The notes: generated by a model from the sequence alone, not told the origin. Positions 902 to 41,904 are shown, counted from the stretch's first letter. The stretch is DNA of 64,000 bases from Pedobacter sp. (GCA_050253415.1 JBFWJC010000002.1:160001-224000), one strand, 5' to 3'. Translations and numbers: made by a program.

Positions 902-2380
902 TTAGCTGCTTTTGGTGGGTGCTTTTGGGCCTTTTTTGGCTGCTGGCAAGTGGATCCTGGCGGTGTGTTCCCCGGCGGCGTTCCTCGGGAACGGGTAGGT
1001 TATGAGCGCGTAGCTGCTGTATAGGCTGACCTTGGTTATGGCGACGGACAGGACTTTGCGCTGCTCCGTTTCGCTGAGCAGGTCGAACTCTTCCCGGGTG
1101 ATGGACAGGGCATCCCAGTCGGGTTGATCCGGTCGGGTGGCTTCGATCTTGCGCCGACGCTCGCGCAGTGCGCCGATGGATGCTTCAATGTCCTGCATTT
1201 TTGCCCGGGCGTCTTCCATGCGCAGGATCCCGTCTGCGATGGCAGCGACCAGGTTATTCTTGCGCTGTTGTTCCTGGTGTTCTTCGCGGTCGATGGCTGC
1301 GAGCTGCTCTGAGGTGGTGTCCTGGCTCTGGGAGGCATGCCACCATGTTTTAAGTTTATCGGTGCTGCTCAGCGTACCGAAAAGGTTGGTGAGCACGCGC
1401 TCGTTGAGGGTGTGCTGTGGGATCATTCTGGACCGGTCGCATGCTCCTGCCGTGTTTTTGGAGCGGCAGCCATAGTAATCGATGCGCGTGCCGTCGTTGC
1501 GGGTGCGACTGTTGCGCCAGGTCTTGACGGTGAGATCGCAATAGCCGCAGCGCAGCAGGTCCAGGTTGGACAAGAGGGCCGCGGCTTCGCGTTTGACGCC
1601 GTTGGTCTTGCGGGTGCGTCGACTGGATCGGATGCGATCGGCTTGCTCGGCGTCCATGACGGGAGTCCAGGACCCTGCGACGATGTCGCCTGTCTCCGGG
1701 TCTTTACGCAGCGCTTGATAAAAGAGCAGTCTATCGTCGGATATGATGCGGCGGATGGAGATCTCCGCACGGCCGAGTTGTTCGGCGATGGCTTTGGCAC
1801 TGTTGGTTTCGGCCAGTTGCCAGATATGTTGACATTCGGCGAGTTGGTCGGTGTCAATCTCTACTTCGCCGGTGTTGCGATCGTAGCGGTATGGGGGTGG
1901 CGCTTTTCCGCCAAGCCATTTACCGGCGCGCAGTGCTTCGCGGCGGCCTTCTGCCATGCGGGCCTGCAGCACCTTCATTTCGACGGAGGAAAAACCGCCC
2001 TCCATCAGCAGGAGCATCCAGTCGCTGTGCTGCTTGGGGTCGAGGCTGCGTGATGGTGTTGCCAGTTTGACGCCGTGTTCGGCGCAGAGATTGAGCCAGC
2101 TGAGATAGTCGGCGAGGGTGTCGTCGCGGCTCAGGCGTGATAGTTCGATGACCAGGATCATGCCTATCTTGCCGGCACGTACGTCAGACTCAAGGCGTGC
2201 GCGTTCGCGCAGATCTTCGACCTTACCCTTGGCAGCACTGGCATGGCCGTCGTCATAGACTTCGACCTGCCATCCCTGCGATGAGGCGTAGGCCGGCAGC
2301 TGCTCGCGTTGGACGGTGAGCCGGTGGGATGGTTTGTTTTTGTCTTCGCGGGATTTGCGTATGTAGACTGCTGCGATCAT
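902..2380 (-). CDS. Large serine recombinase (phage integrase)
   Basis: YIRKS catalytic motif, SRLSR, recombinase domain, CGYC...C..C zinc ribbon, coiled coil; adjacent to attL. Confidence 0.93.
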   Translation of the reverse strand: MIAAVYIRKSREDKNKPSHRLTVQREQLPAYASSQGWQVEVYDDGHASAAKGKVEDLRERARLESDVRAGKIGMILVIELSRLSRDDTLADYLSWLNLCAEHGVKLATPSRSLDPKQHSDWMLLLMEGGFSSVEMKVLQARMAEGRREALRAGKWLGGKAPPPYRYDRNTGEVEIDTDQLAECQHIWQLAETNSAKAIAEQLGRAEISIRRIISDDRLLFYQALRKDPETGDIVAGSWTPVMDAEQADRIRSSRRTRKTNGVKREAAALLSNLDLLRCGYCDLTVKTWRNSRTRNDGTRIDYYGCRSKNTAGACDRSRMIPQHTLNERVLTNLFGTLSSTDKLKTWWHASQSQDTTSEQLAAIDREEHQEQQRKNNLVAAIADGILRMEDARAKMQDIEASIGALRERRRKIEATRPDQPDWDALSITREEFDLLSETEQRKVLSVAITKVSLYSSYALITYPFPRNAAGEHTARIHLPAAKKGPKAPTKSS

Positions 2381-3223: not shown

Positions 3224-3559
3224 TCAATTATCAATATAAACCCGCTCAACGGGGAATTTGGTCGCTGGAAACTCAACGGTCATTTTGACCCTGTCGCCTT
3301 GTTTCATGCGTCCGCCATTGACCTCTTTGCAGACTTTTTTGTTGTCGCCGGTCACTCCGCAGACATCGACATTAAGCAGGGAGGATTGCGCGCCCGCTCT
3401 GGCCAGGGTGATGGTGATGTTGGCGGCGCTGGCTCCGTAGCCGTTGCGGTACATCTTATTGACCTTGACGCGCCAGACGTCGTTGCGATGGGCGAGGGCC
3501 GTGGTGGCTATGAGCAACAGGCTTGCTATGAGTATCAGTTTTTTCAATGTACCCTCCAA
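3224..3559 (-). CDS. Secreted hypothetical protein
   Basis: Signal peptide KKLILIASLLLIATTALA. Confidence 0.65.
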   Translation of the reverse strand: MEGTLKKLILIASLLLIATTALAHRNDVWRVKVNKMYRNGYGASAANITITLARAGAQSSLLNVDVCGVTGDNKKVCKEVNGGRMKQGDRVKMTVEFPATKFPVERVYIDN

Positions 3560-3902: not shown

Positions 3903-4287
3903 TTGTCCGATCTCCTTTTTTTTACCCTTCGCGTAAACAGTGTAACCTATGAACTTCCAATGAGTTTTATTTTTAATGAATCGTTCGTTCAGGCATATTA
4001 GTATGGCCGATTACGGTGAAGCCCGTTTTTTGTTTACCATGGCTTTTGATGCCAGGTATCCGGCTTTGGCCGATGCCATGATTGCCGGTTTGAGTTGGTC
4101 CTGGGTGTGGAGATAGTAGTAGAGCAGTTGTTCTTCGTCCCCCGTTTTTTTTTGCATAAACCCCTCCAAACAATGTTTTATAAATATGTAATTAATCACA
4201 TTTGGAGAGGTTAACTTATTTGTTGCACTCCGGCAACAAATATACCTTTTGTGGTATATTTTCCGCTTTTTATACGGTTTTTTGTAT

Positions 4288-5598: not shown

Positions 5599-6084
5599 AT
5601 GGAAACAAGTCACAGGAGTCAACCGGAAGAGACGTTGAGGGAGTTTTTGTCCTCGTGGTGCAAGGACGGAGGTAAGGCTGCCGGGATAAATCTCAAGCGG
5701 CAGGCGGAACTTTTGGGGTTGCCGGAGAGTACGTTTGGTAACGCGATCAATCCGCACCTGAAGGCTATGGAGTACAAGCTTTCGTGGTTGATCCCTCATA
5801 TGTTGATCCTCAACAGTCTTGAGCCGATGAACTACCTGGCGTCTTGTGTCGGCATGGTGATGTTTAAGCTTCCGGATGCTCCTGGTGGGATCTCTGAGTT
5901 GCATAAGGAACTGGCTCTGTCGATCAAGGAGTTTGGCGATGTGGTGATGGAGACGGGCGAGGCGCTTAAGGATAACCGTCTGCAGCGTCACGAGGTGATC
6001 AAGATCGAGAAGGAGATAGACGAGGTTGTGCGTCAGTTGATGGGTTTTAGGCAAAAGCTCAAAGACAACATGGAGCGTTTGTGA
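5599..6084 (+). CDS. Phage CII-family regulatory protein
   Basis: Position after cro; ...KEFGDV...ALKDNRLQRHE..KIEKEI pattern resembles P2/186-type CII. Confidence 0.7.
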   Translation: METSHRSQPEETLREFLSSWCKDGGKAAGINLKRQAELLGLPESTFGNAINPHLKAMEYKLSWLIPHMLILNSLEPMNYLASCVGMVMFKLPDAPGGISELHKELALSIKEFGDVVMETGEALKDNRLQRHEVIKIEKEIDEVVRQLMGFRQKLKDNMERL

Positions 6085-6232
6085 TGGCCCAGCGCCCGTA
6101 CCAGATCACGCGAGAGCAGCTGACGGACGAGGAGTGGCATCACATGTCTAAGGTGATGTTTCCGGTCCTGTTGGAGGCCAAGCGCAAGGCTCAGGCGATT
6201 ATGGCGCAGCGCAAGCGCGAGCAAGCGAACTA

Positions 6233-6547
6233 ATGAAGCATGTCCGGGCGTATTTTAAGCCTTTTGTGGATGCTTTTAACCGTCTTGCAGACGCGGGTGA
6301 TGAAGAGTTTGAGGCCATGGCGACGGAGTTGGCGCTTGCGGGGTGTCCGTTTAAGCAGCTGACGATCGGGCAGGTCATGGCGTTGATGGAGCATGGCAGC
6401 CTTAAGTATTGGATTTCTACCAAAGGGGGTCAGGATGATCGGTTTCGGTTTGGTTCGGAAATTATTGGAGCGCCGCAAGGTAAAGAGTCGGTTGAACAAA
6501 CTGATGTTGATCCCGACGAATTCACGCCAGCCTTTAATTGTCCCTGA
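6233..6547 (+). CDS. Hypothetical phage protein
   Basis: ORF translationally coupled (TAATG) to a small upstream ORF. Confidence 0.5.
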   Translation: MKHVRAYFKPFVDAFNRLADAGDEEFEAMATELALAGCPFKQLTIGQVMALMEHGSLKYWISTKGGQDDRFRFGSEIIGAPQGKESVEQTDVDPDEFTPAFNCP

Positions 6548-7372
6548 TTTTTGCCCTGTGTGTAGCCGGTCTATACAGGGCCCTGTGTACAGACACAGGG
6601 AGATCACGCCGCAGGGCTCGCGGATCATCCTTGTTTGTCACCTTTGTGAGAGCCTTGGATATACGGACAGTGTTATCACCGCCGCTGCGCAAAGACAGGC
6701 AGCGGGTCACCAAAGTCGCCCAGGACAAGCCCACCTGGTCGGCTCCCACCAAGCCCCGGGCTAGTTCCTCCTTGCTGCCAGGCGGGTCGCCAGCCCGCCG
6801 GGAATTTTTACCGACTATTTCCGGGCCTCCCCTCCCGGTCCTGCTTAAAAGGGGCAAACGAGCCCGGAGAATCTTACTCCGGATCTCCGGGCTCGGACAA
6901 CCATCGGAGGGTATGGTGGATGTCACATGAGCTCTTATATCTGTTCCTGGTGCGGGGCTTATATAGGCCGCGCCGATACTCCGGAGGACAGTCATGGTTG
7001 TTGTAAGTCGTGTTTTACAAAAATCTTGGCAGAGGATGATCTTATTGCTGTGCCGGCTGGTTTTCCCCTGTCCCCCCTCGGGATGGCGGTGGCCAATGCG
7101 TGTTGATCATGCTCTCCACAGGGTTACGGCTTGGGTTGTAGCGTTTACCGTGTTGATGGTCGTCGGCCAGATAATGAGGGGGTTGTGTGGCGCGTAGCAA
7201 ATTTATAGGGGATATGCATAAAGCTGAGGCCAAAGTCAGGGCGGCTTTGGCTGGAGAGGTTCGGACGTTGACTCGGGAAGAGATAGACGAGATCGCGCCG
7301 ACTCTGCAGCCGCCGATTGTCGAAAAGCGCTGCCTTGAATATGGATATGTCGATGAGTGAGAGGCTAACGCC

Positions 7373-14893: not shown

Positions 14894-14995
14894 TTGAAAC
14901 GCCAAGGTAAGACGCGCCGCACTTCCGACGGCGCACCACTAAATTTAACGCGAACCTGCCAGCTATTGCGCGTCGTCTTGACCGGCTGGTTGTGC
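14894..14995 (-). repeat. attC-1 (102 bp)
   Basis: Minus strand GCACAAC CAGCC GGT-C-AAGAC...GTCTT ACC TTGGC GTTTCAA. Confidence 0.82.
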
Positions 14996-15013
14996 CCGCC
15001 TACGGAGGAGTGA

Positions 15014-15253
15014 ATGAAGATCTGGTTTGTAGGAAAGCCGATTGTTGTTGATGGAGAAGAACTTGGCTGGATGCCGGAAGGGGCTTTTGAGACAGAAGAG
15101 GAGGCGGCGAAGGTTGCCACAGATGCCGAATTTATCGTACTGGCCGAGGTTGGAGGAAGATTTCCAGAAAAAGCCACAGATGCCGAAAAGCTGTATTACC
15201 CGAAACTGGAGCGGTGGGAGGATAGCGCCCTTTACAAGATGCGGAATCAGTAA
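15014..15253 (+). CDS. Cassette 1 hypothetical protein
   Basis: RBS GGAGGAG; fills the space between attC-1 and attC-2. Confidence 0.7.
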   Translation: MKIWFVGKPIVVDGEELGWMPEGAFETEEEAAKVATDAEFIVLAEVGGRFPEKATDAEKLYYPKLERWEDSALYKMRNQ

Positions 15254-15255
15254 GG

Positions 15256-15330
15256 GAACAACGCCTGCCGATCAGCGGTGAACGAAGGAGCGCAGCGGAT
15301 GAGTTATCCGCTGCATGGGCCTTGTTAAAC
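15256..15330 (-). repeat. attC-2 (75 bp)
   Basis: Minus strand GTTTAAC AAGGC CCAT-G-CAGCGGA...CCGCTG ATCGG CAGGC GTTGTTC. Confidence 0.85.
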
Positions 15331-15350
15331 AGCCATAAGGAAATGGTCAA

Positions 15351-15737
15351 ATGACACGATTTAAATTTAGAGCATGGGACTCCGTGAACAAGGAAATGCT
15401 TGACGCAAATACTGGATGTTTTTTCTACGAAGAAGACAACGGTTTCCATTGTGGATACCTGGCTGGTGTCAACGCTCCTGCTGATGTTGCGGGGGATTGG
15501 GTTGAATGCCCTGTGATGCAATGGACCGGGATCCGTGACAAAAACGGCATCGAGATTTACGAGGGTGACATTGTAAACCTTGACACTCTTTGCAAATACG
15601 AAGGCGGTGGGACTATTTGGAGAATTAAGCCGCACAAGGTTGTTTTTGAACGCCAGAGATGGCTCCCGGATAGACTGTCGGAGTCTGAAATTATTGGCAA
15701 CATCTACGAACACCCTGAGCTGGTCGGGGCAGTTTAA
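15351..15737 (+). CDS. Cassette 2: YopX-family protein
   Basis: FKFRAWD...MQWTGIRDKNGIEIYEGDIV...EIIGNIYEHPEL. Confidence 0.88.
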   Translation: MTRFKFRAWDSVNKEMLDANTGCFFYEEDNGFHCGYLAGVNAPADVAGDWVECPVMQWTGIRDKNGIEIYEGDIVNLDTLCKYEGGGTIWRIKPHKVVFERQRWLPDRLSESEIIGNIYEHPELVGAV

Positions 15738-15865
15738 CGCTTGAGATCACGGGATTGCGGAGGAAACTATGACAATTGATATGGATATGCCATTTGGCGA
15801 GTTTGCACGGAAACACCTTGATACCGGCGCGGGTAGCAATTCCGCTGTGGATCGACTGGTTAAAT
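15732..15865 (-). repeat. attC-3 (134 bp; contains the RBS and start codon of the cassette 3 gene)
   Basis: Plus strand GTTTAAC GCTTGA GATCAC GGGATTGC...GCAATTCC GCT GTG-G-ATC GACTG GTTAAAT. Confidence 0.82.
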
Positions 15866-16164
15866 CGCCGCCGGTAGTCTGCCTGTGCGGATCTACTCGT
15901 TTTTTCGATGCGTTCAGAGACGCGAATCGCGCCGAAACGATGGAGGGAAAGATCGTGCTTGCTCCCGGAGTGTTTGGCCATTGCGGCGATCCATTGACTG
16001 ACGACGATAAGTTGCGGCTAGATATTTTGCACTATTGGAAAATTGACCTGGCCGACGAGGTGCTTGTGCTCAATGTTGGCGGGTACATTGGCAGCAGCAC
16101 CCAAAACGAAATCGAGTATGCCAAGCGAACCGGGAAACCTGTGCGCTTTCTTGAGGCGATTTAA
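15769..16164 (+). CDS. Cassette 3: nucleoside 2-deoxyribosyltransferase-like / DUF4406-like protein
   Basis: VVCLCGSTRF...KIDLADEVLVLNVGGYIGSSTQNEIEYAKRTGKPV. Confidence 0.7.
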   Translation: MTIDMDMPFGEFARKHLDTGAGSNSAVDRLVKSPPVVCLCGSTRFFDAFRDANRAETMEGKIVLAPGVFGHCGDPLTDDDKLRLDILHYWKIDLADEVLVLNVGGYIGSSTQNEIEYAKRTGKPVRFLEAI

Positions 16165-16218
16165 CGACTTAGTATGAGCGCGCCTGCGTAGCAGGTCCGC
16201 TCGATGCGCTGGTTCTAA
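16159..16218 (-). repeat. attC-4 (60 bp)
   Basis: Plus strand ATTTAAC GACTTA GTATGAGC..CCTGC GTA GCAGG..GCTC-G-ATGC GCTG GTTCTAA. Confidence 0.8.
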
Positions 16219-16252
16219 AGGGTTTTCGCGCTCGGCGAAGCCGATAGGGGGT

Positions 16253-17110
16253 TTGATTGTGGGTTTATTTGAGACAACAGAAGAAGAACTGTACCAGATC
16301 GCCATAAGTCGGCCGCTTGAAGAGAAGATTGATCAGGCAATCTCTCTTATCCAGGCGACTGAAGGCCAAGCGTTGAAATTATCTGATGATGGCTTTTACG
16401 TCTGCTTTTCTGGGGGGAAAGACAGCATTGTCATGGCTCGGTTGTTTGAGATGGCCGGTGTTAAATTTGGCCTACATTACAACAATGTGACAATCGATCC
16501 TCCCGAACTGGTTCGGTTTATCAAGGAAGAATATCCCCATGCGGAATGGCATTCTGTCGGCAAGCACCTGATCAACTACATGGCCGAAGACAAGGTTTGC
16601 GGTCCCCCAACGCGGCTAATTCGCTGGTGTTGCGAGATTTACAAAGAGCAAGGTGGGGTTGATAAATTCCGGGCAATAGGGGTGAGGGCCGAAGAGTCCG
16701 CCAGGCGGAAGGGGTTGTGGAAGCAGATTACCACTGACAGGAAAACGAAGATGCCGATTTTATGCCCCATTTTGTATTGGACACATGCCGACATCTGGGC
16801 ATTCATCAAGCAGCATGACATGCCGTATTGCTGCTTGTATGACGAGGGTTTTGACCGCCTGGGCTGTGTCGGGTGCCCAATGGGAGGACCAAAAGGGCAA
16901 GCCCGCGATTTCGCCCGCTGGCCGAAATATGAAGCGATGTGGAAGCGTGGATTCAGGAAGTATTTTGACAAGTACAAGGGCGTTCCGAAGCGCAACGGGG
17001 AGCCTCGGGCAATCGAAAAATTCCCAACCGTAGACGACCTGTGGAATTGGTGGATAAGCGGCAAAGCCTATGAAGGCGACAATCCGGATTGCCAACTGTG
17101 GCTGTGGTAG
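16253..17110 (+). CDS. Cassette 4: PAPS-reductase-family (PP-loop) protein
   Basis: FSGGKDS, RWCCEIYKE, GVRAEESARR, PILYWT, RLGCVGCP. Confidence 0.88.
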   Translation: MIVGLFETTEEELYQIAISRPLEEKIDQAISLIQATEGQALKLSDDGFYVCFSGGKDSIVMARLFEMAGVKFGLHYNNVTIDPPELVRFIKEEYPHAEWHSVGKHLINYMAEDKVCGPPTRLIRWCCEIYKEQGGVDKFRAIGVRAEESARRKGLWKQITTDRKTKMPILCPILYWTHADIWAFIKQHDMPYCCLYDEGFDRLGCVGCPMGGPKGQARDFARWPKYEAMWKRGFRKYFDKYKGVPKRNGEPRAIEKFPTVDDLWNWWISGKAYEGDNPDCQLWLW

Positions 17111-17128
17111 GTTTTGCGCGAAAAGACT

Positions 17129-17230
17129 TTAGAACGATCATGGTCAGCGACGGTGTGAGAACGGACGCGCCGCACCGACCTAAACGAGAATCGCCGCAGG
17201 TCTTCCGTTCGCTGGACCTGCTGGTTAGAT
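17129..17230 (-). repeat. attC-5 (102 bp)
   Basis: Plus strand TTAGAAC GATCAT GGT CAGCGA CGG...CCG T TCGCTG-G-ACC TGCTG GTTAGAT. Confidence 0.85.
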
Positions 17231-17250
17231 TTCTTTCTATAGAGGAACTT

Positions 17251-17451
17251 ATGAAACCTAAATGCCCACATTGCGATCACCAGTTTGATGACGACCAAGT
17301 TTGGCACGGAAGCAACAACTGCGAATTCCCAACCGAGCGCGACGGTGATACGGGGGAATTCGACTGCCCGATCTGCGGGAAGCCGCTGTATGTTCGTATT
17401 GAATTCACCCCCGCATGGTACTTCACCGACGATAACGGCATTGAAATCTAA
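17251..17451 (+). CDS. Cassette 5: zinc-ribbon protein
   Basis: RBS GAGGA; CPHC...CPIC. Confidence 0.7.
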   Translation: MKPKCPHCDHQFDDDQVWHGSNNCEFPTERDGDTGEFDCPICGKPLYVRIEFTPAWYFTDDNGIEI

Positions 17452-17531
17452 TAACAAAGATCAGCGGCGAAGGAGGCCGTAGCCTATGAAACTGAAGCGT
17501 TTATTTCGTCCGCTGTATTGGCTGGTTATGC
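17446..17531 (-). repeat. attC-6 (86 bp; R' box begins ATT instead of GTT; contains the RBS and start of the cassette 6 gene)
   Basis: Plus strand ATCTAAT AACAAA GAT CAGCGG CGAA...TTCG T CCGCTG-T-ATT GGCTG GTTATGC. Confidence 0.75.
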
Positions 17532-17695
17532 GCTGCACTGGAACTATTTATTTGGAACCTGGCCTTAGAGTAACCACTTCTGGCTGGGTGATTATTTCTG
17601 ACGGGAAATCGAAAGATGCTTTGCCTATCAGCCTCGTCTCGCAAGAGATTGTGGATAAGGTGGAAGCCAGTTTGGCAAGTTGGGGTTACACATAA
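17486..17695 (+). CDS. Cassette 6 hypothetical protein
   Basis: RBS AGGAGG inside attC-6; TAA stop coincides with the next R box. Confidence 0.6.
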   Translation: MKLKRLFRPLYWLVMRCTGTIYLEPGLRVTTSGWVIISDGKSKDALPISLVSQEIVDKVEASLASWGYT

Positions 17696-17744
17696 CGACT
17701 AGCTGACCGAGAGCGCAGCGATTCGGTCGAGCGGCTTGTTGTAA
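17690..17744 (-). repeat. attC-7 (55 bp)
   Basis: Plus strand ACATAAC GACTA GCT GACCGA GAGCGCAGCGAT TCGGTC-G-AGC GGCTT GTTGTAA. Confidence 0.85.
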
Positions 17745-17756
17745 TGCGAGGGACCT

Positions 17757-18020
17757 ATGAAAAAGAACCGATTGGCCGCAAAGGAGTGGCGCGAAGAAGA
17801 TCAACGGAAAAAGAAGCAAGCTGAAGACATTGAGTACGCCACAAGCAAAACATACGACGCAGAAAAGCGCATCCGTGGCTTGAGTGCAACAATCGAGTAT
17901 GCCGGGCATCCAGAAATCGCAGAAAAGGTAGAGTCTGCGAGGTTGCTATTAGCAGAATCTTACGAAAATCTGCAAGCAATACAACGACTAGCTGACCGAG
18001 AGCGCAGCGATTCGGTCTAG
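17757..18020 (+). CDS. Cassette 7 hypothetical coiled-coil protein (reads into attC-8)
   Basis: RBS GAGGGA; stop TAG lies inside attC-8. Confidence 0.65.
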   Translation: MKKNRLAAKEWREEDQRKKKQAEDIEYATSKTYDAEKRIRGLSATIEYAGHPEIAEKVESARLLLAESYENLQAIQRLADRERSDSV

Positions 18021-18033
18021 CGGCTTGTTAGAC
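17979..18033 (-). repeat. attC-8 (55 bp; 46/47 identical to the attC-7 core)
   Basis: Same as attC-7 except the bulged base (G versus T on the plus strand). Confidence 0.85.
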
Positions 18034-18048
18034 ATTAAATAAAGGAGC

Positions 18049-18243
18049 ATGAAAATGTTGATTACGTTTAAAGCAAGATGCCCTGAGTGCGGAGTGGATG
18101 GAAAACACACAGTGGAAATAGGACAAGACCTGCACCCGAAGAAGGTACTTCTTTGCGACACGGAAGTTGGAGGATGCGACTGTTATTTCGCAGCATTTAT
18201 AAACATAAGGGCCGAAGCTGAAACGGCAAAGATAGATGTCTAA
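18049..18243 (+). CDS. Cassette 8: small zinc-finger protein
   Basis: RBS AAGGAG; CPEC...CDTEVGGCDC. Confidence 0.65.
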   Translation: MKMLITFKARCPECGVDGKHTVEIGQDLHPKKVLLCDTEVGGCDCYFAAFINIRAEAETAKIDV

Positions 18244-18351
18244 CAGAGGTAACAATGGAAAATTTTCCACTTATCACCACGATTAAAGCCAAAAAGTGGA
18301 AAACAGCCGTCAACAAATGACAACAGCCAAATGACAAAGGACACCCCCTGA

Positions 18352-19101
18352 ATGTTCCAGCGCGCCCAACAACTCATCGACGTTGCCAGCCAGCACCAAA
18401 AAGCCGAACTGGTCACACTGCACAACGCCGTGCTCGAACGCATGGAAGCCTACAAGAAGGCCAGCACCGCCGCCAACAAGCGCGACTGGGCCGCCGCCAA
18501 AAAAGGCCTGCAGGAGTGCATCGACCAACTCTTGCCGGTGTACTTCCCCGAGCTGTCCGCCGCCGACCCGGAGGTGTTCGACACCCAAAAAGCCGCCCTC
18601 GCCTGGCTGCACAACCACTTCGGCAAACCGTACCCGTCCGCCGGCAAGTTCAGCCAGGATATCCGTGACGGGCTGTGCCTGCAGCAGCAGAACAAAACCA
18701 TCCTGCGCAAGGATCTCAAAAAATACGCCGAGGTCATCGGCCATGACAAGCAGGCCGCCGCCGCCTCGGCCAGCCAAGCCGAAAAACGCGAAAAGCTCGA
18801 AATCGAAAAGCTGGAGCTGGATGTCGAAAAACGCCGGATGGAAAACCGCAAGGAGGACAAAAACTGGATCGCCCGCGACACCGTCTTCGAACGCGAAGGC
18901 GCCCTTGTCGGTCAGATCATGGGCGAAGCCCGCCATCACCTCGGCCGCGCCGTACCCGCCGTGATCCATGCCGCCAAAGGCGACCCCGAGCGCACCCCGG
19001 AGATCAAAAAAATTATCGAAGAAGCCCTGTTCGACGCCTTCCGCTCCCTGTATGAATCCGGCGAAGTCGACATGACCTTTTTGCAAGAAGAAGAGGACTG
19101 A
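18352..19101 (+). CDS. Putative terminase small subunit
   Basis: Coupled to the GpA-type large subunit; coiled-coil EKLEIEKLELDVEKRR region. Confidence 0.55.
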   Translation: MFQRAQQLIDVASQHQKAELVTLHNAVLERMEAYKKASTAANKRDWAAAKKGLQECIDQLLPVYFPELSAADPEVFDTQKAALAWLHNHFGKPYPSAGKFSQDIRDGLCLQQQNKTILRKDLKKYAEVIGHDKQAAAASASQAEKREKLEIEKLELDVEKRRMENRKEDKNWIARDTVFEREGALVGQIMGEARHHLGRAVPAVIHAAKGDPERTPEIKKIIEEALFDAFRSLYESGEVDMTFLQEEED

Positions 19102-21077
19102 TGCAAACCGCCCTGGCCGCCGACATCTTTGCCCAGCCCCTGCCCGAGTTTTTCCCCGAGCAGCTGCGCCACGCCTGCAGCGGTAAACGCATCCGCTACA
19201 CGCTGCCGCGCTCCGTGCGCGAACGCATGCAAATACCCGAAGACATCACCGTCAGCCAATGGGCCGAAAAATACCGCCGCGTCACCGCCATCGACGCCGA
19301 GCCAGGCCGCTGGCGCATCGACCGCGTCCCCCACACCAAAAAACTCATGGACATGATCAGCCTGCCGTGGGTCAAGGAATTCTGGCTGTGCATGGTCGAG
19401 CGCGCCGCCAAAACCCAGATAGTGCTCAACGCCGCCTGCCGTCAGATCGACCGCGGCATAGACTCCGGCAACGTATTTTGGCTCATGCCAAGCGAAGCCG
19501 ACGCCAAAAAAGCCCTCAGCGAACGCATCATACCCGTACTCAAAGAGAGCCCCCGCATGGCTCGGCTGCTGTCGCGCTACGCCGACGACACCACCAGCAC
19601 CAAGATCCGCTTTAAACACGGACCGCGCCTGTTTCCCGCCTGGTCCAACAGCCCCGGCTCCATCGCCTCGTTTTACGGCAAGCTCAACATCGGCGATGAG
19701 ATCGACAAATACGGCGACCGCTCCGGCGGCGAAACCGACCCCATTACCCTGCTCAAAAAACGCGGCCGCGACAGCGACGAATCCAAATTCCTGTTTGCCA
19801 GCACCCCCGCCGGTAAATTTATATACAAAGGCACCATGGCCTGCCAGCAAGTCTGGACCTACAAAAACCGCTGCCCCCATTGCGGTGAATACATCCTGAT
19901 GGACGCCGATCATTTCATGCTACCCGAAGGCGCCACCCAGGAGACCATCAAACACGGCGAGCACCCCGTCACCTACGCCTGCAACGACTGCGGCGTAGAA
20001 TGGGACGAAACCGACCGCAAAACCGCCTACCAAAACGGCGACTGGTTCGCCATCAAAGGCGCCGATGTCGAGCGGCCCACCACCATCGGAGCCTGGTTGC
20101 CGGCCTTCCCGCTGCCCAACATCCCCATGGCCGAGATCGGCGCCGCCATCGCCCGCGCCAACACCGGAGATCTCGCCGGTAAGATGGACCTCGCCCACGG
20201 CTATAAAGCCGTCGACTACGAAGCCGAAAACAAAGACCGGCAAGAAGACGCCATCCTGCTGCTGCGCGACGACCGCCCGGCAGGCATGATCCCCACCGAA
20301 GCCAACGGCCTCGAAATATCCATCGACACCCAGGATAACGGCTTCTGGTATCGCATCCGCGCCTGGCGTTACGGCCTCGATCTCAAAAGCTGGCTTGTCA
20401 AAGCCGGATATGTGCCCAGTGCCAACGCCGCCGACTTTGCCGCCCTCGATGATCTCATCGCGGCCGAATACCCCGACACCAACGGCGAGCCCCACCGCAT
20501 TATGGCCGGCATCATCGACAGCGCCGGGCATCGCACCAGCGAAGTCTACGCCTGGTGCCGCCGCACCGGAATCATACCAGCCAAAGGTGCCCAAGGCCGC
20601 AAGACCCAGCCCGTCACCGTCAGCCGCATCGACCGTTTCCCCGGTGACAACAAACCGATCCCCGGCGGCCTCAACCTCTACCATATCGACACGCATTTTC
20701 ACAAAGACCAACTCGCCAACAAACTGCAGATCGACCCCTCCGATCCCGGCGCCCTGGTGCTGCACAGCGGCTATAGCCTTGACCAGCTCACAGCCCTGCA
20801 CCGCGATCCAAACGGTAAACAAGCCCACAACCTGGAGGAATACGCCCGCCAGATGTGCGTCGAATACCGCGACGAGCGCGGCCTGTGGCAATGCCCCGAC
20901 GGCAAAGCCAATCACCTGTGGGATTGTGAAAACAACGGCCTCGCCCTGGTCATGTACCTGGGTTGGCAGCACAAAGGCAGCGTAAAAAAGAAGCCCGCCA
21001 CCAACGGACTCAAACCCAAAGACACCGCACCAGCCGCCACCAGCCGCGACCTTCCGGCATGGTATCGCAACCGCTAA
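19101..21077 (+). CDS. Terminase large subunit, lambda GpA family
   Basis: ITVSQWAEKYR, GDEIDKY, ASTP, CPHCGE, IDTQDN, IDSAGHRT, NHLWDCE. Confidence 0.9.
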   Translation: MQTALAADIFAQPLPEFFPEQLRHACSGKRIRYTLPRSVRERMQIPEDITVSQWAEKYRRVTAIDAEPGRWRIDRVPHTKKLMDMISLPWVKEFWLCMVERAAKTQIVLNAACRQIDRGIDSGNVFWLMPSEADAKKALSERIIPVLKESPRMARLLSRYADDTTSTKIRFKHGPRLFPAWSNSPGSIASFYGKLNIGDEIDKYGDRSGGETDPITLLKKRGRDSDESKFLFASTPAGKFIYKGTMACQQVWTYKNRCPHCGEYILMDADHFMLPEGATQETIKHGEHPVTYACNDCGVEWDETDRKTAYQNGDWFAIKGADVERPTTIGAWLPAFPLPNIPMAEIGAAIARANTGDLAGKMDLAHGYKAVDYEAENKDRQEDAILLLRDDRPAGMIPTEANGLEISIDTQDNGFWYRIRAWRYGLDLKSWLVKAGYVPSANAADFAALDDLIAAEYPDTNGEPHRIMAGIIDSAGHRTSEVYAWCRRTGIIPAKGAQGRKTQPVTVSRIDRFPGDNKPIPGGLNLYHIDTHFHKDQLANKLQIDPSDPGALVLHSGYSLDQLTALHRDPNGKQAHNLEEYARQMCVEYRDERGLWQCPDGKANHLWDCENNGLALVMYLGWQHKGSVKKKPATNGLKPKDTAPAATSRDLPAWYRNR

Positions 21078-21087
21078 GGAGACCACC

Positions 21088-21306
21088 ATGACACCACCGC
21101 AAATATACCGCCGCAAAGACATGCTCACCGTCGCCCAATTCGCCAAAGTCATCGGCATGAGCCGTAGTTTTGCCTATCAACTGGTCGAGCGCGGACCGCA
21201 AGAAGGCGGCGTTCTGGCGTTTCGTTATGGCAAGACAAAAGGGCTTAGGGTGCCGGCGGAAGAGGTGACGCGATATCAGCAGGAGAGAAAGGTTGTTGAG
21301 GTATAA
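21088..21306 (+). CDS. Excisionase-like / HTH_17 DNA-binding protein
   Basis: MLTVAQFAKVIGMSRSFAYQLVERG...LRVP; RBS AAGGAG. Confidence 0.7.
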   Translation: MTPPQIYRRKDMLTVAQFAKVIGMSRSFAYQLVERGPQEGGVLAFRYGKTKGLRVPAEEVTRYQQERKVVEV

Positions 21307-21360
21307 CGGATTTGAGGTGTGCGGCGAGCGTAGCGAGTCCACACCAGCGAAGGGTTATGA
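21301..21360 (-). repeat. attC-9 (60 bp) of the solitary cassette
   Basis: Minus strand TCATAAC CCTTC GCTGGTGTGGA CTCGCTACGCTCG CCGCACACC TCAAATCC GTTATAC; cassette ends GTTATGATGCC/GGCATCATAAC are a perfect 11-bp inverted repeat. Confidence 0.75.
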
Positions 21361-22187
21361 TGCCCATGCAGAAACAGCGAATCATACGGGTTTTTCCGAG
21401 ACGGACAGCGGCCACGCCAGATGATGATCTGGTGAGGATCGCCACAACGCCCGGCCTCTTTGACGAAGCCGATGAAGTGCATGTGTCGGTGACGTTTACT
21501 TGGGATTTACCCCTTGTCGAAAAACTGGCGAAAGCCTGGGAGCCGGTGGCTCCTGTGACGATCGGAGGCCCGGCGACGGGAGAAGCTGGGGGGGATTTTA
21601 CCCCTGGCTTGTACGTCAAAAAAGGCTACGTACTCACCTCTCGCGGCTGCCCGAACAACTGCTGGTTTTGTTCCGTGCCAAAACGTGAAGGCCCGTTGCG
21701 GGAATTGCCGATCACCGAAGGCTGGAACGTCCTCGATGACAACTTGTTGGCATGCTCTGACGATCATGTCCGGAGAGTGTTCGAGATGCTGTATGGCCAG
21801 AAGAAAAACGGACGGATTCAATTTACTGGCGGACTGGAAGCTGCCCGCCTCAAACCCTGGCACGTTGAAGCCCTGCGGGGATTGAGGCCGAAACAGATGT
21901 TCTTTGCGTACGACACGCCCGACGATCTGGAACCGCTGCAGGACGCTGGTAGGATGCTGTTGGATGCTGGCTTTACGATCACAAGTCACGCCCTTCGGGC
22001 CTATGTGTTGTGCGGCTGGCCGAAGGATAGTTTTGAGGCGGCAGGCCGCAGGATGCAACAAACGATAGACGCCGGTTTCATGCCGATGGCGATGCTTTAC
22101 CGTGGCGTAGCCGGCAAACGTGATACGGAGTGGATGCGCTGGCAACGGGAATGGGCGAGACCAGCCATAATTGCCAAGGCATCATAA
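21357..22187 (+). CDS. Cassette 9: radical SAM protein
   Basis: TSRGCPNNCWFCSVP CxxxCxxC, LDDNLLA; start at 21357, 21360 or 21366. Confidence 0.85.
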   Translation: MMPMQKQRIIRVFPRRTAATPDDDLVRIATTPGLFDEADEVHVSVTFTWDLPLVEKLAKAWEPVAPVTIGGPATGEAGGDFTPGLYVKKGYVLTSRGCPNNCWFCSVPKREGPLRELPITEGWNVLDDNLLACSDDHVRRVFEMLYGQKKNGRIQFTGGLEAARLKPWHVEALRGLRPKQMFFAYDTPDDLEPLQDAGRMLLDAGFTITSHALRAYVLCGWPKDSFEAAGRRMQQTIDAGFMPMAMLYRGVAGKRDTEWMRWQREWARPAIIAKAS

Positions 22188-22262
22188 CATCCTTTAACCA
22201 GCCCACAATGACAGTTACCCATATAATTATTTTAGGCAAAACCGCAAAAACCTAAAAAAGTT

Positions 22263-22329
22263 GTCCACCACGTCCACCACGTCCACCACGTACATGACAA
22301 CCCCCACCCATGCGCCGTAATCTCGGCGC
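22263..22329 (+). promoter_or_regulatory. Putative late promoter: 3x GTCCACCAC repeats then ATGACA-18-TAATCT, leaderless
   Basis: Tandem 9-mers at 22263-22289 lie just upstream of the -35; the -10 ends 6 nt before the ATG and there is no RBS. Confidence 0.5.
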
Positions 22330-22575
22330 ATGGCTATTACCCCACTATACACATCCTCCGAGCTCGATGCCCTGATCGCCGCCTATAAGCAGGCCGAGAT
22401 GTCGCTCGCGTCCGGCGTCGCGGAATACACCATCGACGTAGGTGGTGGTCGCCGTACCGTGCGCCGCCGCGATCTGGCCGAGGTGCGCCAGGCCCTGCAA
22501 TACTACCAGGGGCAGCGCGTGCAACTCGCTACCGGCTCCGGCCCCCAAACCCTGGTGGGGAGACCGGTACGATGA
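22330..22575 (+). CDS. Head-tail joining protein (gpW-like)
   Basis: Small ORF before portal; EYTIDVGGGRRTVRRRDLAEV. Confidence 0.7.
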   Translation: MAITPLYTSSELDALIAAYKQAEMSLASGVAEYTIDVGGGRRTVRRRDLAEVRQALQYYQGQRVQLATGSGPQTLVGRPVR

Positions 22576-24107
22576 GTGGTTGCCGCGTAGGGCGCAGCTA
22601 TCCCGCCGGCCGGTACCACGGCGGTCTTATCCCAAGCATCCAGGGCGCTTCCATTCGTCGCAGCTCCGGCGGCTACAGCGGAACTCTCTCCAACTGGTCG
22701 CCATCGCGCATGACCTGGCCCGAAGAAGGCCGCAACCGCGAAACCACCGTCGACCGCGCCAACGACCTCGCCGCCAACCATCCCCACGCCGCAAGCCTTG
22801 TCGACTCCATCACCGTCAACGCCGTCGGTCCCGGGCTGTGGCCGCAAAGCAAGCCACATTACGAGCGCCTTGGCTTGTCCGAGAGCTGGGCCACAGAGTT
22901 TGCCGGCGCCGCCGAGTGGGAATTGGAACAGTGGAACCGTGAAGCCGACGCCCGCGAAGTCACCGACTTTTACGGCAAACAGTTTCAAAACCTCTGGTCG
23001 ATGCTCGTCAACGGCGAATTTATCAACCTGCCTCTGATGCTCGATGATCCAGGACGCCGTTACCGACTCGCCCTGCAGGATATCGACCCCGTGCGCCTTC
23101 GTACCCCCATGGCCCTGTTCGGCGCCGCCGATATCCGCGACGGTATCCGACTCGGCGACCGTGGCCAGGCCAAAGGCTACTTCCTCGCAGATCCCGACGA
23201 CGGCCGCATTGTAAGCAGCCTCGACATGCGCCACTATCGCGAGCTACCCGCACGTATCGGCCACCGCCCGGTGGTCATGCACCGCTTCCACGCCAAAACC
23301 CCCGAGCAGGTGCGCGGCGTCAGCGTGCTGGCACCGGCCATGAAGTTCTTCCGCGATGTCTCCGACTACCTCGATTACGAGCTGGTCGGCGCCATCGTCG
23401 CCAGCAGCTTCCCGGTCTTCATCGAAAAAAACACCACTTACGATGCCACCCAATTGCCCGGTGTCGAGTCCGTACAAAACGCCACCGGCGATACCACCCA
23501 TTACCGCAACTACAGCCCCGGCCAGGTGCTGTACGGCAACGGCGCCGAAAAGCCCCATATCCTCAAAAGCGACCGCCCCGGCAACTCCTTCCCGGCGTTT
23601 ATCGAGACCATCCTGCGCGCCGTCGGTGCTGCCGCCGGCATGCCCTACGAGATCATCAGTAAAGACTTTTCCAAAACCAACTACTCCAGCGCCCGCGCCG
23701 CCCTGCAAGAAGCCTGGCGCGTGTTTGAGCTCTATCAGGATTGGCTGGTCGGCGGATTTTGTCAACCGGTGTGGGAGATGTTACTGGAAGAAGCCTTCCT
23801 GCGCGGTCGCCTGCCGATCCCCAAGGGCGCACCCGACTTTTACGCCGCCCGCGCCGAATATTGCGCCGCAACCTGGGTCGGCCCCGAGCGTACCAACGTC
23901 GATCCCGTCAAAGAGATGGTCGCCGACATCATGGGCCTTAACGCCAACGTGACCACCCAAGCCGATATCGCCGCCAAAAAAGGCAAAGACTGGGAGCAGC
24001 AGTTCAGACAGCGCTCCCGCGAGCGTCAGCTGGCAAGAGACCTAGACCTTAATCCGGATCCGCCGAGCACCAAAAAAGCCAAAGATCCGGCCACCGTATT
24101 GGAGTAG
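22572..24107 (+). CDS. Portal protein, lambda family
   Basis: RANDLAANHP, QVRGVS.LAP, DFSKTNYSSARAA, VDPVKE. Confidence 0.92.
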   Translation: MSGCRVGRSYPAGRYHGGLIPSIQGASIRRSSGGYSGTLSNWSPSRMTWPEEGRNRETTVDRANDLAANHPHAASLVDSITVNAVGPGLWPQSKPHYERLGLSESWATEFAGAAEWELEQWNREADAREVTDFYGKQFQNLWSMLVNGEFINLPLMLDDPGRRYRLALQDIDPVRLRTPMALFGAADIRDGIRLGDRGQAKGYFLADPDDGRIVSSLDMRHYRELPARIGHRPVVMHRFHAKTPEQVRGVSVLAPAMKFFRDVSDYLDYELVGAIVASSFPVFIEKNTTYDATQLPGVESVQNATGDTTHYRNYSPGQVLYGNGAEKPHILKSDRPGNSFPAFIETILRAVGAAAGMPYEIISKDFSKTNYSSARAALQEAWRVFELYQDWLVGGFCQPVWEMLLEEAFLRGRLPIPKGAPDFYAARAEYCAATWVGPERTNVDPVKEMVADIMGLNANVTTQADIAAKKGKDWEQQFRQRSRERQLARDLDLNPDPPSTKKAKDPATVLE

Positions 24108-24110
24108 CGC

Positions 24111-25427
24111 ATGCGCAACCTGCGAATCGCTGAAATGCTATTTAACCGTCCGCTGATGATCTCAGAGTCAAAGCTCAATGTGATTCTGCATATCCTCGGC
24201 CCCCGCCTCAATCTTGACCTTGGCGGCCTGCCGTCGCAACAACTGGCCGAGATCAGCGACCAGGACCGCGCCCGCGCAGGCTATCAGGTCAAAGGCAACA
24301 TCGGCATTGTCGGCATCCACGGCCCCCTCATGCACCGCCGTCTGGCCTCTCAATTCCCCAGCGGAGGCCCGACGACCTACGGCGAGATCCGCCGCGCCTT
24401 TGACATGGCCATGGCCGATGATGCCGTAGAGTCCATTATTTTGGATATCGACTCTCCCGGTGGTGAAGTCAGCGGCGTCTTTGACCTGGCGGATCACATC
24501 TATCAGGCCCGCAGCAGCAAGCCGAGCACCGCCATACTTAACGAGTCGGCCTTCTCCGCAGGTTATCTATTGGCCAGCAGCGCCGGACGCATTGTGATGC
24601 CCCGTACCGGCGGCGCCGGATCCATCGGGGTCATTGCCACCCATGCCGATTTTTCACGGGCGGAAGACGCCGCAGGAATCACCGTAACCCATGTTATCGC
24701 CGGCGCCAAAAAAGCCGATTTTTCCCCGCACCATCCTTTAAGCGAATCGGCTCTTGCCTCACTGCAAGCCATGGTAGACGACAGCTACGAAATGTTTGTC
24801 GATACCGTCGCCAGGAATCGAGGCATGACAACCAAGGCTGTGCGCGATACCGAAGCCGGTATTTTTGAAGGCAAAAAAGCCGTCGCAGCACGCCTTGCCG
24901 ACGAAATTTCCGCAGTAGATAAAGCCATCGCCCAGGCCGGTATGGCCAGAGGCAAAACCATGCTCCCCACTTCGGCCAGAGCCGTCGCGGGAAAGGAGAA
25001 CCGCGCCATGACACTTTTGGAACTCAGAGAAAAACACCCCGATCTGGTAGCCCAGATCGAAACCGAAGCCAGCGCCGGCATGATTACCCAGGCCGCCGCC
25101 GACACCGCCCGCGCCGAAGCCGTCACCGCTGAAAGCACCCGCGTTATGAGCCTGGTGCAAGCCGCCATCGGCGAAGAAGGTGCCGGGAAGATCCGCGCCG
25201 CCGCCGACAAAGGCCTCACCGCCGATGACCTGCAGGCCCTTGGCGTCAGCCTTGCCCCTGTCGCCACCGGCGATGCCGACCTTGCCACCCGTAATGCCAT
25301 GCTTGAAGGCATAACAGGCGCCGCTCCGGCCGCGTTGCGCACCGGCAACGCCGTCACCGGCGAAGCCGCCGAAGAGCAAGTCGTTACCAACGCTATCCTT
25401 GCCGGGGCCGCCGGTCGCCGCCAGTAA
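24111..25427 (+). CDS. S49 capsid maturation protease with C-terminal scaffold (in-frame internal start at 25008)
   Basis: LDIDSPGGEV, AFSAGY.LAS, GSIGV; internal RBS AAGGAG before ATG 25008, as in lambda C/Nu3. Confidence 0.88.
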   Translation: MRNLRIAEMLFNRPLMISESKLNVILHILGPRLNLDLGGLPSQQLAEISDQDRARAGYQVKGNIGIVGIHGPLMHRRLASQFPSGGPTTYGEIRRAFDMAMADDAVESIILDIDSPGGEVSGVFDLADHIYQARSSKPSTAILNESAFSAGYLLASSAGRIVMPRTGGAGSIGVIATHADFSRAEDAAGITVTHVIAGAKKADFSPHHPLSESALASLQAMVDDSYEMFVDTVARNRGMTTKAVRDTEAGIFEGKKAVAARLADEISAVDKAIAQAGMARGKTMLPTSARAVAGKENRAMTLLELREKHPDLVAQIETEASAGMITQAAADTARAEAVTAESTRVMSLVQAAIGEEGAGKIRAAADKGLTADDLQALGVSLAPVATGDADLATRNAMLEGITGAAPAALRTGNAVTGEAAEEQVVTNAILAGAAGRRQ

Positions 25428-41675: not shown

Positions 41676-41694
41676 AAATAGTGCGAAAAAAAGT

Positions 41695-41741
41695 CTTGAC
41701 ATAAACGCTAACGTCAGTATAATCCAGCCCATCGCTACACG
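41695..41741 (+). promoter_or_regulatory. Phage-borne copy of the host tRNA promoter
   Basis: 45/47 identical to 634-680; TTGACA-16-TATAAT. Confidence 0.85.
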
Positions 41742-41828
41742 GTATTTCGGCCAGTTTTTAGGCGTTTTTGTAGACCAAAAACATAGTTAAACAACCGAAA
41801 TAAAAAAGAAAACGCGTAGCTATTCCGT

Positions 41829-41904
41829 TCCCTGGTAGCTCAGTTGGTAGAGCAGGCGGCTGTTAACCGCCTTGTCGCAGGTTCGAGTCCTGCCCGGGGA
41901 GCCA
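41829..41904 (+). tRNA. tRNA-Asn (GTT), reconstituted at attR
   Basis: 76-nt cloverleaf; anticodon arm GGCGG-CTGTTAA-CCGCC; GTTCGAGTCC; encoded CCA. Confidence 0.97.

Follow-up and report, generated by a model that had tools for sequence, protein, structure and literature searches.

A single integron cassette with a reversed radical-SAM gene between the terminase and head genes of a predicted Pedobacter prophage

The DNA analyzed here, a stretch of 64,000 nucleotides from Pedobacter sp. (G000:C2:160001-224000, hereafter the window), harbors what is by appearance a lambda-type prophage at about 700-41700. Between its gene for the terminase protein TerL and its head-tail adaptor gene, that is, within the packaging and head operon, we located a segment on the minus strand (21307-22187) which, judged from its sequence, is a single and complete integron cassette carrying a gene for a radical-SAM protein of 276 amino acids (21357-22187, plus strand). 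Three kinds of evidence delimit this recombination unit: a match to models of the attC recombination site, full complementarity of its two ends and comparison with a related element in another viral contig, termed L012. The cassette departs from the common but not obligatory arrangement of an open reading frame (ORF) on the attC top strand and attC downstream of it. Here, the bottom strand carries the gene and attC is upstream, and we refer to cassettes of this kind as backwards.

An attC-like hairpin at 21301-21360 had been pointed out in an initial annotation of the window, and two covariance models now match this site at full length, at exactly these coordinates and on the minus strand. On the plus strand, the site reads AAC at 21305-21307 and GTT at 21354-21356, and an inner stem GGTGTG/CACACC lies within 21316-21345. 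The first model, R1, was derived from 15 attC sites of the host array adjoining the integron integrase gene intI (alignment A4); 89.6% of the cells in its structure are paired, a value that none of 500 shuffles reached. The second, R2, is based on 12 attC matches, all of them from other viral contigs. Run over the 64-kb window with filters switched off, R1 returned ten matches at E<10. Nine are on the minus strand, namely eight in 14894-18033 (48.8 to 18.6 bits, down to E 7e-10) and the site at 21301-21360 with 15.3 bits; the tenth, of 13.4 bits, lies elsewhere. The E value of the R1 match at 21301-21360 is 0.29 over the whole window and 0.0059 in a search of 1.3 kb. R2 gives the same site a score of 24.7 bits, with a window-wide E value of 4.9e-4. 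The eight best R2 matches (E 0.035 or lower) are all on the minus strand and comprise, besides this site, seven array sites; the remaining array site appears at 15277-15330 with E 1.4. The attC of the radical-SAM cassette is thus the ninth, located 3268 nucleotides from the array of eight, and the separate R1 match bears out the earlier description of a solitary ninth cassette. Its polarity was assigned because the model scores favor the minus strand only and because of the side that bears the stem-loop; complementarity of the ends is predicted by both polarities. No plus-strand match at 21301-21360 is listed in the 1.3-kb R1 search. Taken together, these results identify 21301-21360, at the level of sequence, as an attC site with its top strand on the minus strand of the window. 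Energy-based and rule-based attC scanners were found to be too crude and were replaced by the covariance models. A likeness of the loop motif to one host attC, seen by eye, was discarded, as the loop word is common and also occurs in another abundant host repeat. When the hairpins were compared with the host genome by blastn-short, nothing significant was found outside the window.

The bases at the start of an integron cassette are complementary to the R box at its other end, which gives the circular form a complete attC. The perfect inverted ends of 11 bp reported in the initial annotation were recovered as an 11/11 pair, GTTATGATGCC/GGCATCATAAC. The left arm, GTTATGATGCC (21354-21364), is the attC R box and overlaps the ATG starts at 21357 and 21360, while the right arm, GGCATCATAAC (22178-22188), contains the TAA stop of the gene and the crossover point AA|C and ends at the AAC of 22186-22188. 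On the plus strand, the order is therefore C, attC, GTT..., radical-SAM ORF and ...TAA; on the minus strand, the same segment reads as a canonical cassette, with TT..., an antisense gene, attC and G. A Shine-Dalgarno-like GAAGG and the ATG of the radical-SAM gene fall inside attC. Removal of 21307-22187 leaves the TAA of the preceding gene in place and joins it to CATCC, as had been claimed and as is evident upon reading the sequence. The minus strand across the crossover (21307-21301) is G|TTATAC and fits the consensus 5'-GWT-3' (10.1101/2022.09.11.507474). An 11-nucleotide pair alone is not rare, and a second, unrelated 11/11 inverted pair (I8) is present within the same 1.4 kb. The feature nevertheless stands above chance because the covariance matches fall at the exact coordinates, because GTT-anchored repeats are rare in homologous loci and because the repeat co-varies in one of the latter, L015. 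In the other cassettes of the window, end complementarity is seen as perfect runs of 11, 9 and 9 nucleotides; in the rest it is shorter or interrupted.

Homologues of the radical-SAM protein were retrieved from 30 loci in viral contigs and 12 genome loci; the genome homologues do not exceed 65% identity, and none of them has an end repeat. Four loci were dropped from the count of repeats (three partial matches and one near a contig end), and several pairs look like duplicates. Among the 37 analyzable loci, a GTT-anchored repeat of at least 11 nucleotides linking gene start and stop occurs in three, namely the window (11), L012 (12, same sequence) and L015 (12, different sequence), each of them reached by none of 200 shuffles; the other 34 have 7 nucleotides or less. 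In L015, the ends pair 12/12 with a different sequence, that is, the repeat co-varies, and minus-strand attC sites are present directly upstream of the gene (3921-3987) and at 3286-3339. The homologue in L012 shares 84% amino acid identity and is preceded by a minus-strand attC (1741-1807, R2 37.6 bits, E 1.6e-7) that is not part of the R2 training set and follows the TGA of an unrelated ORF of 77 amino acids. The ...TAA|C of the L012 gene abuts another minus-strand attC (56 bits), and a gene for a DNA methyltransferase comes next. Similarity between the window and L012 extends from about 21337 to 22188, ends at ...CATCATAAC and then falls to background, with no flanking DNA in common. A check suggested by the initial annotation, whether homologous radical-SAM genes carry the same attC at different loci, thus had a positive outcome in both L012 and L015 (attC, gene, ...TAA|C), and the sequences indicate that the same cassette occurs in different genetic contexts. 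The contig of L012 also encodes an IntI of its own (327.3 bits, above the cut-off; 41% identical to that of the host), located between the cassettes and the small-terminase gene terS, where the window has only an attI-like site. By its gene content, L012 appears as a complete phage integron with backwards cargo upstream of terS. The region 1741-4496 of L012 consists of attC, radical-SAM gene, attC, DNA methyltransferase gene, a short spacer and IntI, with all genes co-directional. AAC...GTT palindromes were seen by eye beside the gene in L014 and L036 and are scored by neither model. Most homologues, including those in L013 (81%) and L016 (76%), are ordinary genes without cassette ends.

The gene directly following that for TerL (21088-21306, plus strand) encodes a helix-turn-helix (HTH) protein of 72 amino acids resembling excisionases (HTH_17, PF12728, 27.3 bits). 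Its TAA stop occupies 21304-21306 and, together with the next C, would constitute the target of insertion (G|TTA on the minus strand). TerL-based searches yielded five phage relatives, i.e., L042 (same contig as L059), L043, L058, L060 and L010 of genome G015; in a search at the DNA level, nothing in the phage collection matched 19101-24107. The HTH gene follows TerL in all five, with identities of 70-72% in L042, L058, L060 and G015 and of 41% in L043, and by this conservation it is part of the phage backbone. The radical-SAM gene is absent from the slot after HTH in five of five relatives, and neither model detects attC in the slot at these loci. In the 3.4-4 kb upstream of terS in L058, L059 and L060, neither attC, by either model, nor intI was found. 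Since the relatives keep the order TerL, HTH, gpW without the gene or an attC, the cassette is to be read as an insertion relative to these phages. GC skew is positive over about 21050-22250 and strongly negative in the surrounding backbone, and while the backbone at 18350-41000 shows a strong coding-strand bias (C>G, A>T; GC skew about -0.2), 15000-18250 and 21100-22250 have G>C and a lower GC content, which marks the cassette regions as foreign to the phage backbone.

The slot itself is filled in various ways. L058 and L060, which are close to the window (TerL 84-85%, gpW 90%), have about 135 nucleotides with a 42-codon ORF between HTH and conserved repeats in front of gpW. L043 carries ParB-like genes, and in G015 540 nucleotides of other sequence are followed by the contig end. 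We considered whether G015 holds a decayed radical-SAM cassette and rejected this, as there was no significant similarity (best E 1.5-4.1) and no attC match. The slot of L042 spans 1.8 kb and holds, at 5725-7318, two minus-strand genes (263 and 301 amino acids) to which no family was assigned. Upstream of the adaptor gene in the window, three tandem copies of the 9-nucleotide word GTCCACCAC (22263-22298) were noticed that are conserved in L042 and L058 and look like a protein-binding or late-regulatory site.

The array of eight attC sites and cassettes at 14894-18244 (minus strand) carries its cargo on the plus strand. The encoded proteins belong to real families, such as YopX (PF09643), a PAPS-reductase domain protein (PF01507; 16253-17110) and zinc-ribbon proteins, among others. 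The array is headed on the minus strand by an attI-like site (18255-18308), immediately before terS (18352); the array is not simply flipped as a whole. Compared with the opposite strand of the attI region of the host integron, this site is 78% identical over 55 nucleotides (E 1.3e-4) with 20/20 core positions. The prophage lacks intI. The host genome encodes an IntI (G000:C1:1750302-1751246) in an open frame of 336 amino acids that scores 447.6 bits against TIGR02249 (cut-off 265), and the host cassette array (G000:C1:1751819-1759526) runs away from intI. Host arrays are also found far from this sole full intI, several of them headed by attI-like sites (C1:335784-341999, C3:106431-108490, C8:107325-117127, C16 and C2:109869-118946), and a partial intI-like match at C2:470321-470557 adjoins two attC sites. 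An abundant host repeat of about 80 nucleotides has a GC-rich stem and a loop word common to some attC sites and recurs at spacings of about 513-524 bp (e.g., C4:266896-268457, C1:858168-858690 and C1:331389-331913); R1 scores none of its copies as attC.

Cassette polarity was assessed via the longest ORF on each strand between neighboring attC sites. Over the host genome, R1 finds 52 attC matches at E 0.01 or lower, and these were combined with six weaker hits from the window and two unlisted training sites. Of 39 host segments between attC sites, 37 have their longest ORF on the attC top strand, as opposed to none of seven prophage segments, from which we conclude, on sequence grounds, that the prophage cassettes are genuinely backwards. 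None of the array cargo genes has a homologue in the host arrays. The same orientation was met elsewhere. Homologues of the PAPS-reductase cassette gene occur in 18 viral loci, where R1 gives nine matches at E<1, all of them on the strand opposite to the gene; attC lies directly upstream of the homologue in four loci (L067 with 55.6 bits, L075 with 38.6, L074 with 25.8 and L073 with 22.9), and the further cassettes of these arrays have the longer ORF opposite attC in ten of 12 segments, two being ambiguous. These viral loci were retrieved via genes already known to be backwards and represent a biased sample. Within the array of the window, the attC sites at 17690-17744 and 17979-18033 are 98% identical over 47 nucleotides, and a single G/T difference creates the TAG that ends the ORF at 17757-18020, which thus reads through the R box into the hairpin.

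How could the cassette have reached its position? Its anatomy, its polarity and its recurrence are evident from the sequences, as are its lack in relatives and the occurrence of IntI and attI; enzyme, exact target, circular intermediate and expression are inferred as follows. The cassette would have been cut out, in circular form, of an array, for instance a phage-borne integron like that of L012. The bottom strand of its attC, once folded, would then have been recombined by an integron integrase with a double-stranded G|TT on the phage minus strand. The intact IntI of the host would be the favored enzyme, because the attI-like site of the prophage matches that of the host. On the plus strand, the target would be the TAA|C ending the HTH gene, so that the HTH stop would be kept and the cassette set between HTH and gpW. 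As the radical-SAM gene is co-directional with the late operon, read-through transcription could express it. The premise that IntI inserts cassettes at secondary GTT-like sites, already voiced in the initial annotation, is backed by print: according to Loot et al. (10.1101/2022.09.11.507474), IntI inserts at genomic 5'-GWT-3' sites (attG) without strand bias, followed by expression and excision. We regard entry by an IntI crossover at the G|TT overlapping the HTH stop codon as probable. Among public runs, none with RNA is listed as containing the sequence. Contigs from four public runs contain no joint that skips 21307-22187; only a single run, probably the source, spans the slot and contigs drop rare variants, so that they are uninformative on excision.

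Several observations weigh against this view. R1 by itself is not significant window-wide, and R2 is not fully independent, because its training set contains the attC upstream of the L015 homologue. The predicted fold of 21295-21370 (-8.1 kcal/mol, z 0.00) is no better than that of shuffles. Extrahelical bases are not evident, as the R and L boxes are separated by 8 nucleotides on either side, which leaves room only for small opposing bulges. The positive GC skew begins within the HTH gene, upstream of the cassette boundary. The outer junction of L012, G|TC, does not fit GWT. The earlier proposal of an independent insertion at a TAAC stop codon stands as far as the AA|C boundaries, the lack of the cassette in relatives and the fit to GWT are concerned; the literal empty junction GAGGTATAACATCC, however, is present in none of the five relatives, whose HTH stop contexts differ and cannot be aligned beyond the stop codon. 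G015 has ATTTGAGG four bases after the HTH stop, whereas the counterpart in the window is inside the left end of the cassette (21311-21318). To the right of the cassette, 44 nucleotides (22188-22231) have no clear counterpart in the relatives; L042 and L058 become homologous again from about 22232, at the conserved tandem GTCCACCAC repeats in front of gpW. It may be that DNA beyond the cassette took part in the event or that something already occupied the slot. Finally, the slot is variable in every relative and what it holds in L042, L043 and L058 does not resemble a cassette, which implies that other recombination routes act here and that the slot is a general hot spot for cargo.

It follows that a true cassette could have arrived by phage mosaicism, i.e., by homologous or illegitimate recombination or by decay of a larger cluster, without any IntI crossover at the HTH stop. 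The differing slots of the relatives (1.8 kb in L042, ParB-like genes in L043, about 0.4 kb in G015, a 42-codon ORF in L058 and L060), the unique sequence at 22188-22231 and the missing empty junction speak for such a course, and a weak AAC...GTT mini-palindrome at 22192-22220 (4.3 bits in the R1 search) could be the relic of a second, collapsed attC. Mosaicism does not account for both boundaries falling exactly at AA|C, for ends that are complementary at 11/11 positions or for a similarity to L012 that stops at the cassette end with no flanking DNA in common, and we consider it rather improbable. An insertion by an integrase other than that of the host has to be weighed as well. An L012-like ancestor with intI beside terS could have supplied the enzyme, given that L012 has a full IntI between cassettes and terS, where the window has just the attI-like site, and that the cassette cargo lacks homologues in host arrays. 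The close resemblance of the prophage attI-like site to the host attI region (20/20 exact within 78% over 55 nucleotides), the low identity of only 41% between the L012 and host integrases, and the lack of attC and intI in the stretch examined of L058, L060 and L042 render a phage-encoded enzyme unlikely, without making it negligible.

Two further explanations carry far less weight. Were the site read forward, the hairpin would be the attC of an HTH cassette of normal polarity and the radical-SAM gene would be the next cassette, having lost its own attC. The HTH stop indeed lies within the AAC box, as is often the case in normal cassettes, and end complementarity is expected for either polarity. 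Both models, however, match the minus strand only, HTH is kept in five relatives that lack attC, and in L012 and L015 the hairpin accompanies the radical-SAM gene with no HTH gene before it, so that this reading is very improbable. It is scarcely credible that a chance hairpin and a chance inverted repeat surround an ordinary accessory gene or that the hairpin is a terminator or a regulatory RNA. Folding energy equal to that of shuffles and the other 11/11 pair nearby would agree with chance, yet the covariance matches at exact coordinates and the co-varying repeats in L015 do not. A terminator or regulatory RNA is contradicted by a hairpin without a T-run, by an Rfam scan that detected nothing in the window except a transfer RNA (tRNA) gene and no family at the hairpin, and by a scan for promoters and terminators that gave nothing promoter-like and, within 20900-22500, a single terminator-like match that lies elsewhere (minus strand, 21011-20991).

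Beyond the proposed insertion by IntI, we tentatively entertain a wider reading, to which we give less than even credence as a whole. Phages of this type may maintain a separate pool of backwards cassettes, whose genes are encoded on the attC bottom strand and whose attC, preceding the gene, could supply the ribosome binding site and start codon, with TAA|C stops of closely packed phage genes as scarless landing sites. Such genes would be silent from the integron promoter and expressed by phage read-through, their polarity being fixed by landing at stop codons, and operons would receive them through a host or phage IntI, with the SOS response and prophage induction as plausible occasions. Stop codons come into play as landing sites because G|TT reads TAA|C on the opposite strand. 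That TAA|C stops are favored sites and explain the backwards polarity is put forward as a hypothesis drawn from the two outer junctions observed, TAA|C in the window and TGA|C in L012.

The cargo was recognized as a radical-SAM ORF in the initial annotation, and this assignment was corroborated by the CxxxCxxC motif, by a match to phrog_9298 ("radical SAM domain protein", E 3.6e-17) and by the modeled fold. Cysteines C98, C102 and C105 of the motif are invariant in 32 homologues. The match to PF04055 (23.6 bits) stays below the cut-off of 29.5, the NCBIfam scan gave no family above cut-off, and a sequence search of the PDB found the cluster motif only (E 0.013). An AlphaFold2 model based on an alignment of 32 sequences (pLDDT 90.4, pTM 0.87) shows a small Rossmann-like N-domain and a radical-SAM core. 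In a Foldseek comparison with the PDB, the first ranks were taken by MgmA (9ccb, 2.1e-8), AprD4, MiaB, RimO, TsrM, TokK and CysS, with TM scores to the query of 0.5-0.63, and the protein is about 150 residues shorter than these enzymes. According to the model, CxxxCxxC resides in a partial TIM-barrel fold, as in members of the radical-SAM superfamily, and the predicted fold is a minimal version of the layout of class-B methylases and methylthiotransferases. DNA methyltransferases and PAPS-reductase/DndC-like genes are its neighbors in other phages, hence our guess that the enzyme modifies nucleic acid. A homologue is encoded directly beside a PAPS-reductase/DndC-like gene in L018 (4001-5574), L053 (1420-2939) and L077 (1501-3202) and within 4 kb of one in L024 and L040; in the window, the two genes reside in separate cassettes 4 kb apart. 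They may form a functional pair.

A large serine recombinase (902-2380, minus strand) marks the left end of the prophage. A terS candidate (18352-19101), gpA-type TerL (19101-21077, profile match), the adaptor gene gpW (22330-22575, PHROG-type match), a lambda-family portal gene (22572-24107) and an S49 protease gene (24111-25427), the latter two identified by profile matches, surround the cassette. Repeats of 60 nucleotides at 626-685 and 41687-41746 are 90% identical, and each has a promoter-like TTGACA...TATAAT; together with the tRNA gene following the right repeat (41829-41901) and the serine recombinase, they are probably the prophage attachment sites.

In kind, the element is already known, since both phage CALINs (attC arrays lacking an integrase) and insertions of single cassettes at GWT sites have been published. 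Among 10,705 phage genomes, Qi et al. (2023) (PMC9892861) recorded three integrons, 17 CALINs and one In0, and they showed that phage attC sites recombine with IntI1. The locus described here is similar with respect to phage attC sites, integrase-less arrays, an attI heading a phage array (in a Shewanella prophage) and DNA methyltransferase cargo as in L012. It differs in that gene direction in their material, as far as the consulted part of the article describes it, is typical or mixed, with neither systematic bottom-strand cargo nor a lone cassette in a structural operon being reported. Loot et al. (10.1101/2022.09.11.507474) define SALINs, i.e., single attC sites without an integron integrase, and describe single cassettes as common. 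With these, our element shares a single cassette outside an array, a presumed G|TT target that fits 5'-GWT-3', an IntI in the same genome and the possibility of read-through expression; unlike them, it resides in a prophage late operon, has its gene on the attC bottom strand and lies 3268 nucleotides from an array headed by attI. A literature search recovered no paper on systematic bottom-strand cargo in phage cassettes, the supplementary tables of PMC9892861 lying outside its coverage.

The sedentary chromosomal cassettes of the host, which supplied the training set of R1, have attC sites of the same type and share the attI-like site and the complementarity of the ends with the R box; they differ in ORF strand, as counted above, and the cargo families do not overlap. 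Software that clusters attC sites merges those within about 4 kb and would join the lone cassette with the array. Likeness to morons, accessory genes between conserved genes of lambdoid phages, consists in an accessory gene placed in a variable slot between conserved late genes and co-oriented with the operon. Morons are, however, defined by a promoter and a terminator of their own, neither of which was found here, and the unit in the window has integron recombination ends.

Integrons have mostly been studied as bacterial devices, and phage attC clusters and off-platform insertions of single cassettes have each been described only recently. The locus joins the two, with a lone cassette in a phage structural operon and a host integrase and attI that match the phage sites, and it provides a natural example of a cassette entering a phage operon without breaking it. 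In the phage cassettes found here and in the other viral contigs examined, the gene is placed opposite to the strand that is the norm in bacteria, a consistent oddity. The attC, the attI-like site and the host IntI offer defined substrates for a recombination test. If general, these observations would mean that phages and bacteria have a common recombination machinery but differently wired gene pools, and would yield a testable rule for the damage-free entry of genes into compact operons, with crossover right after a TAA|C stop.

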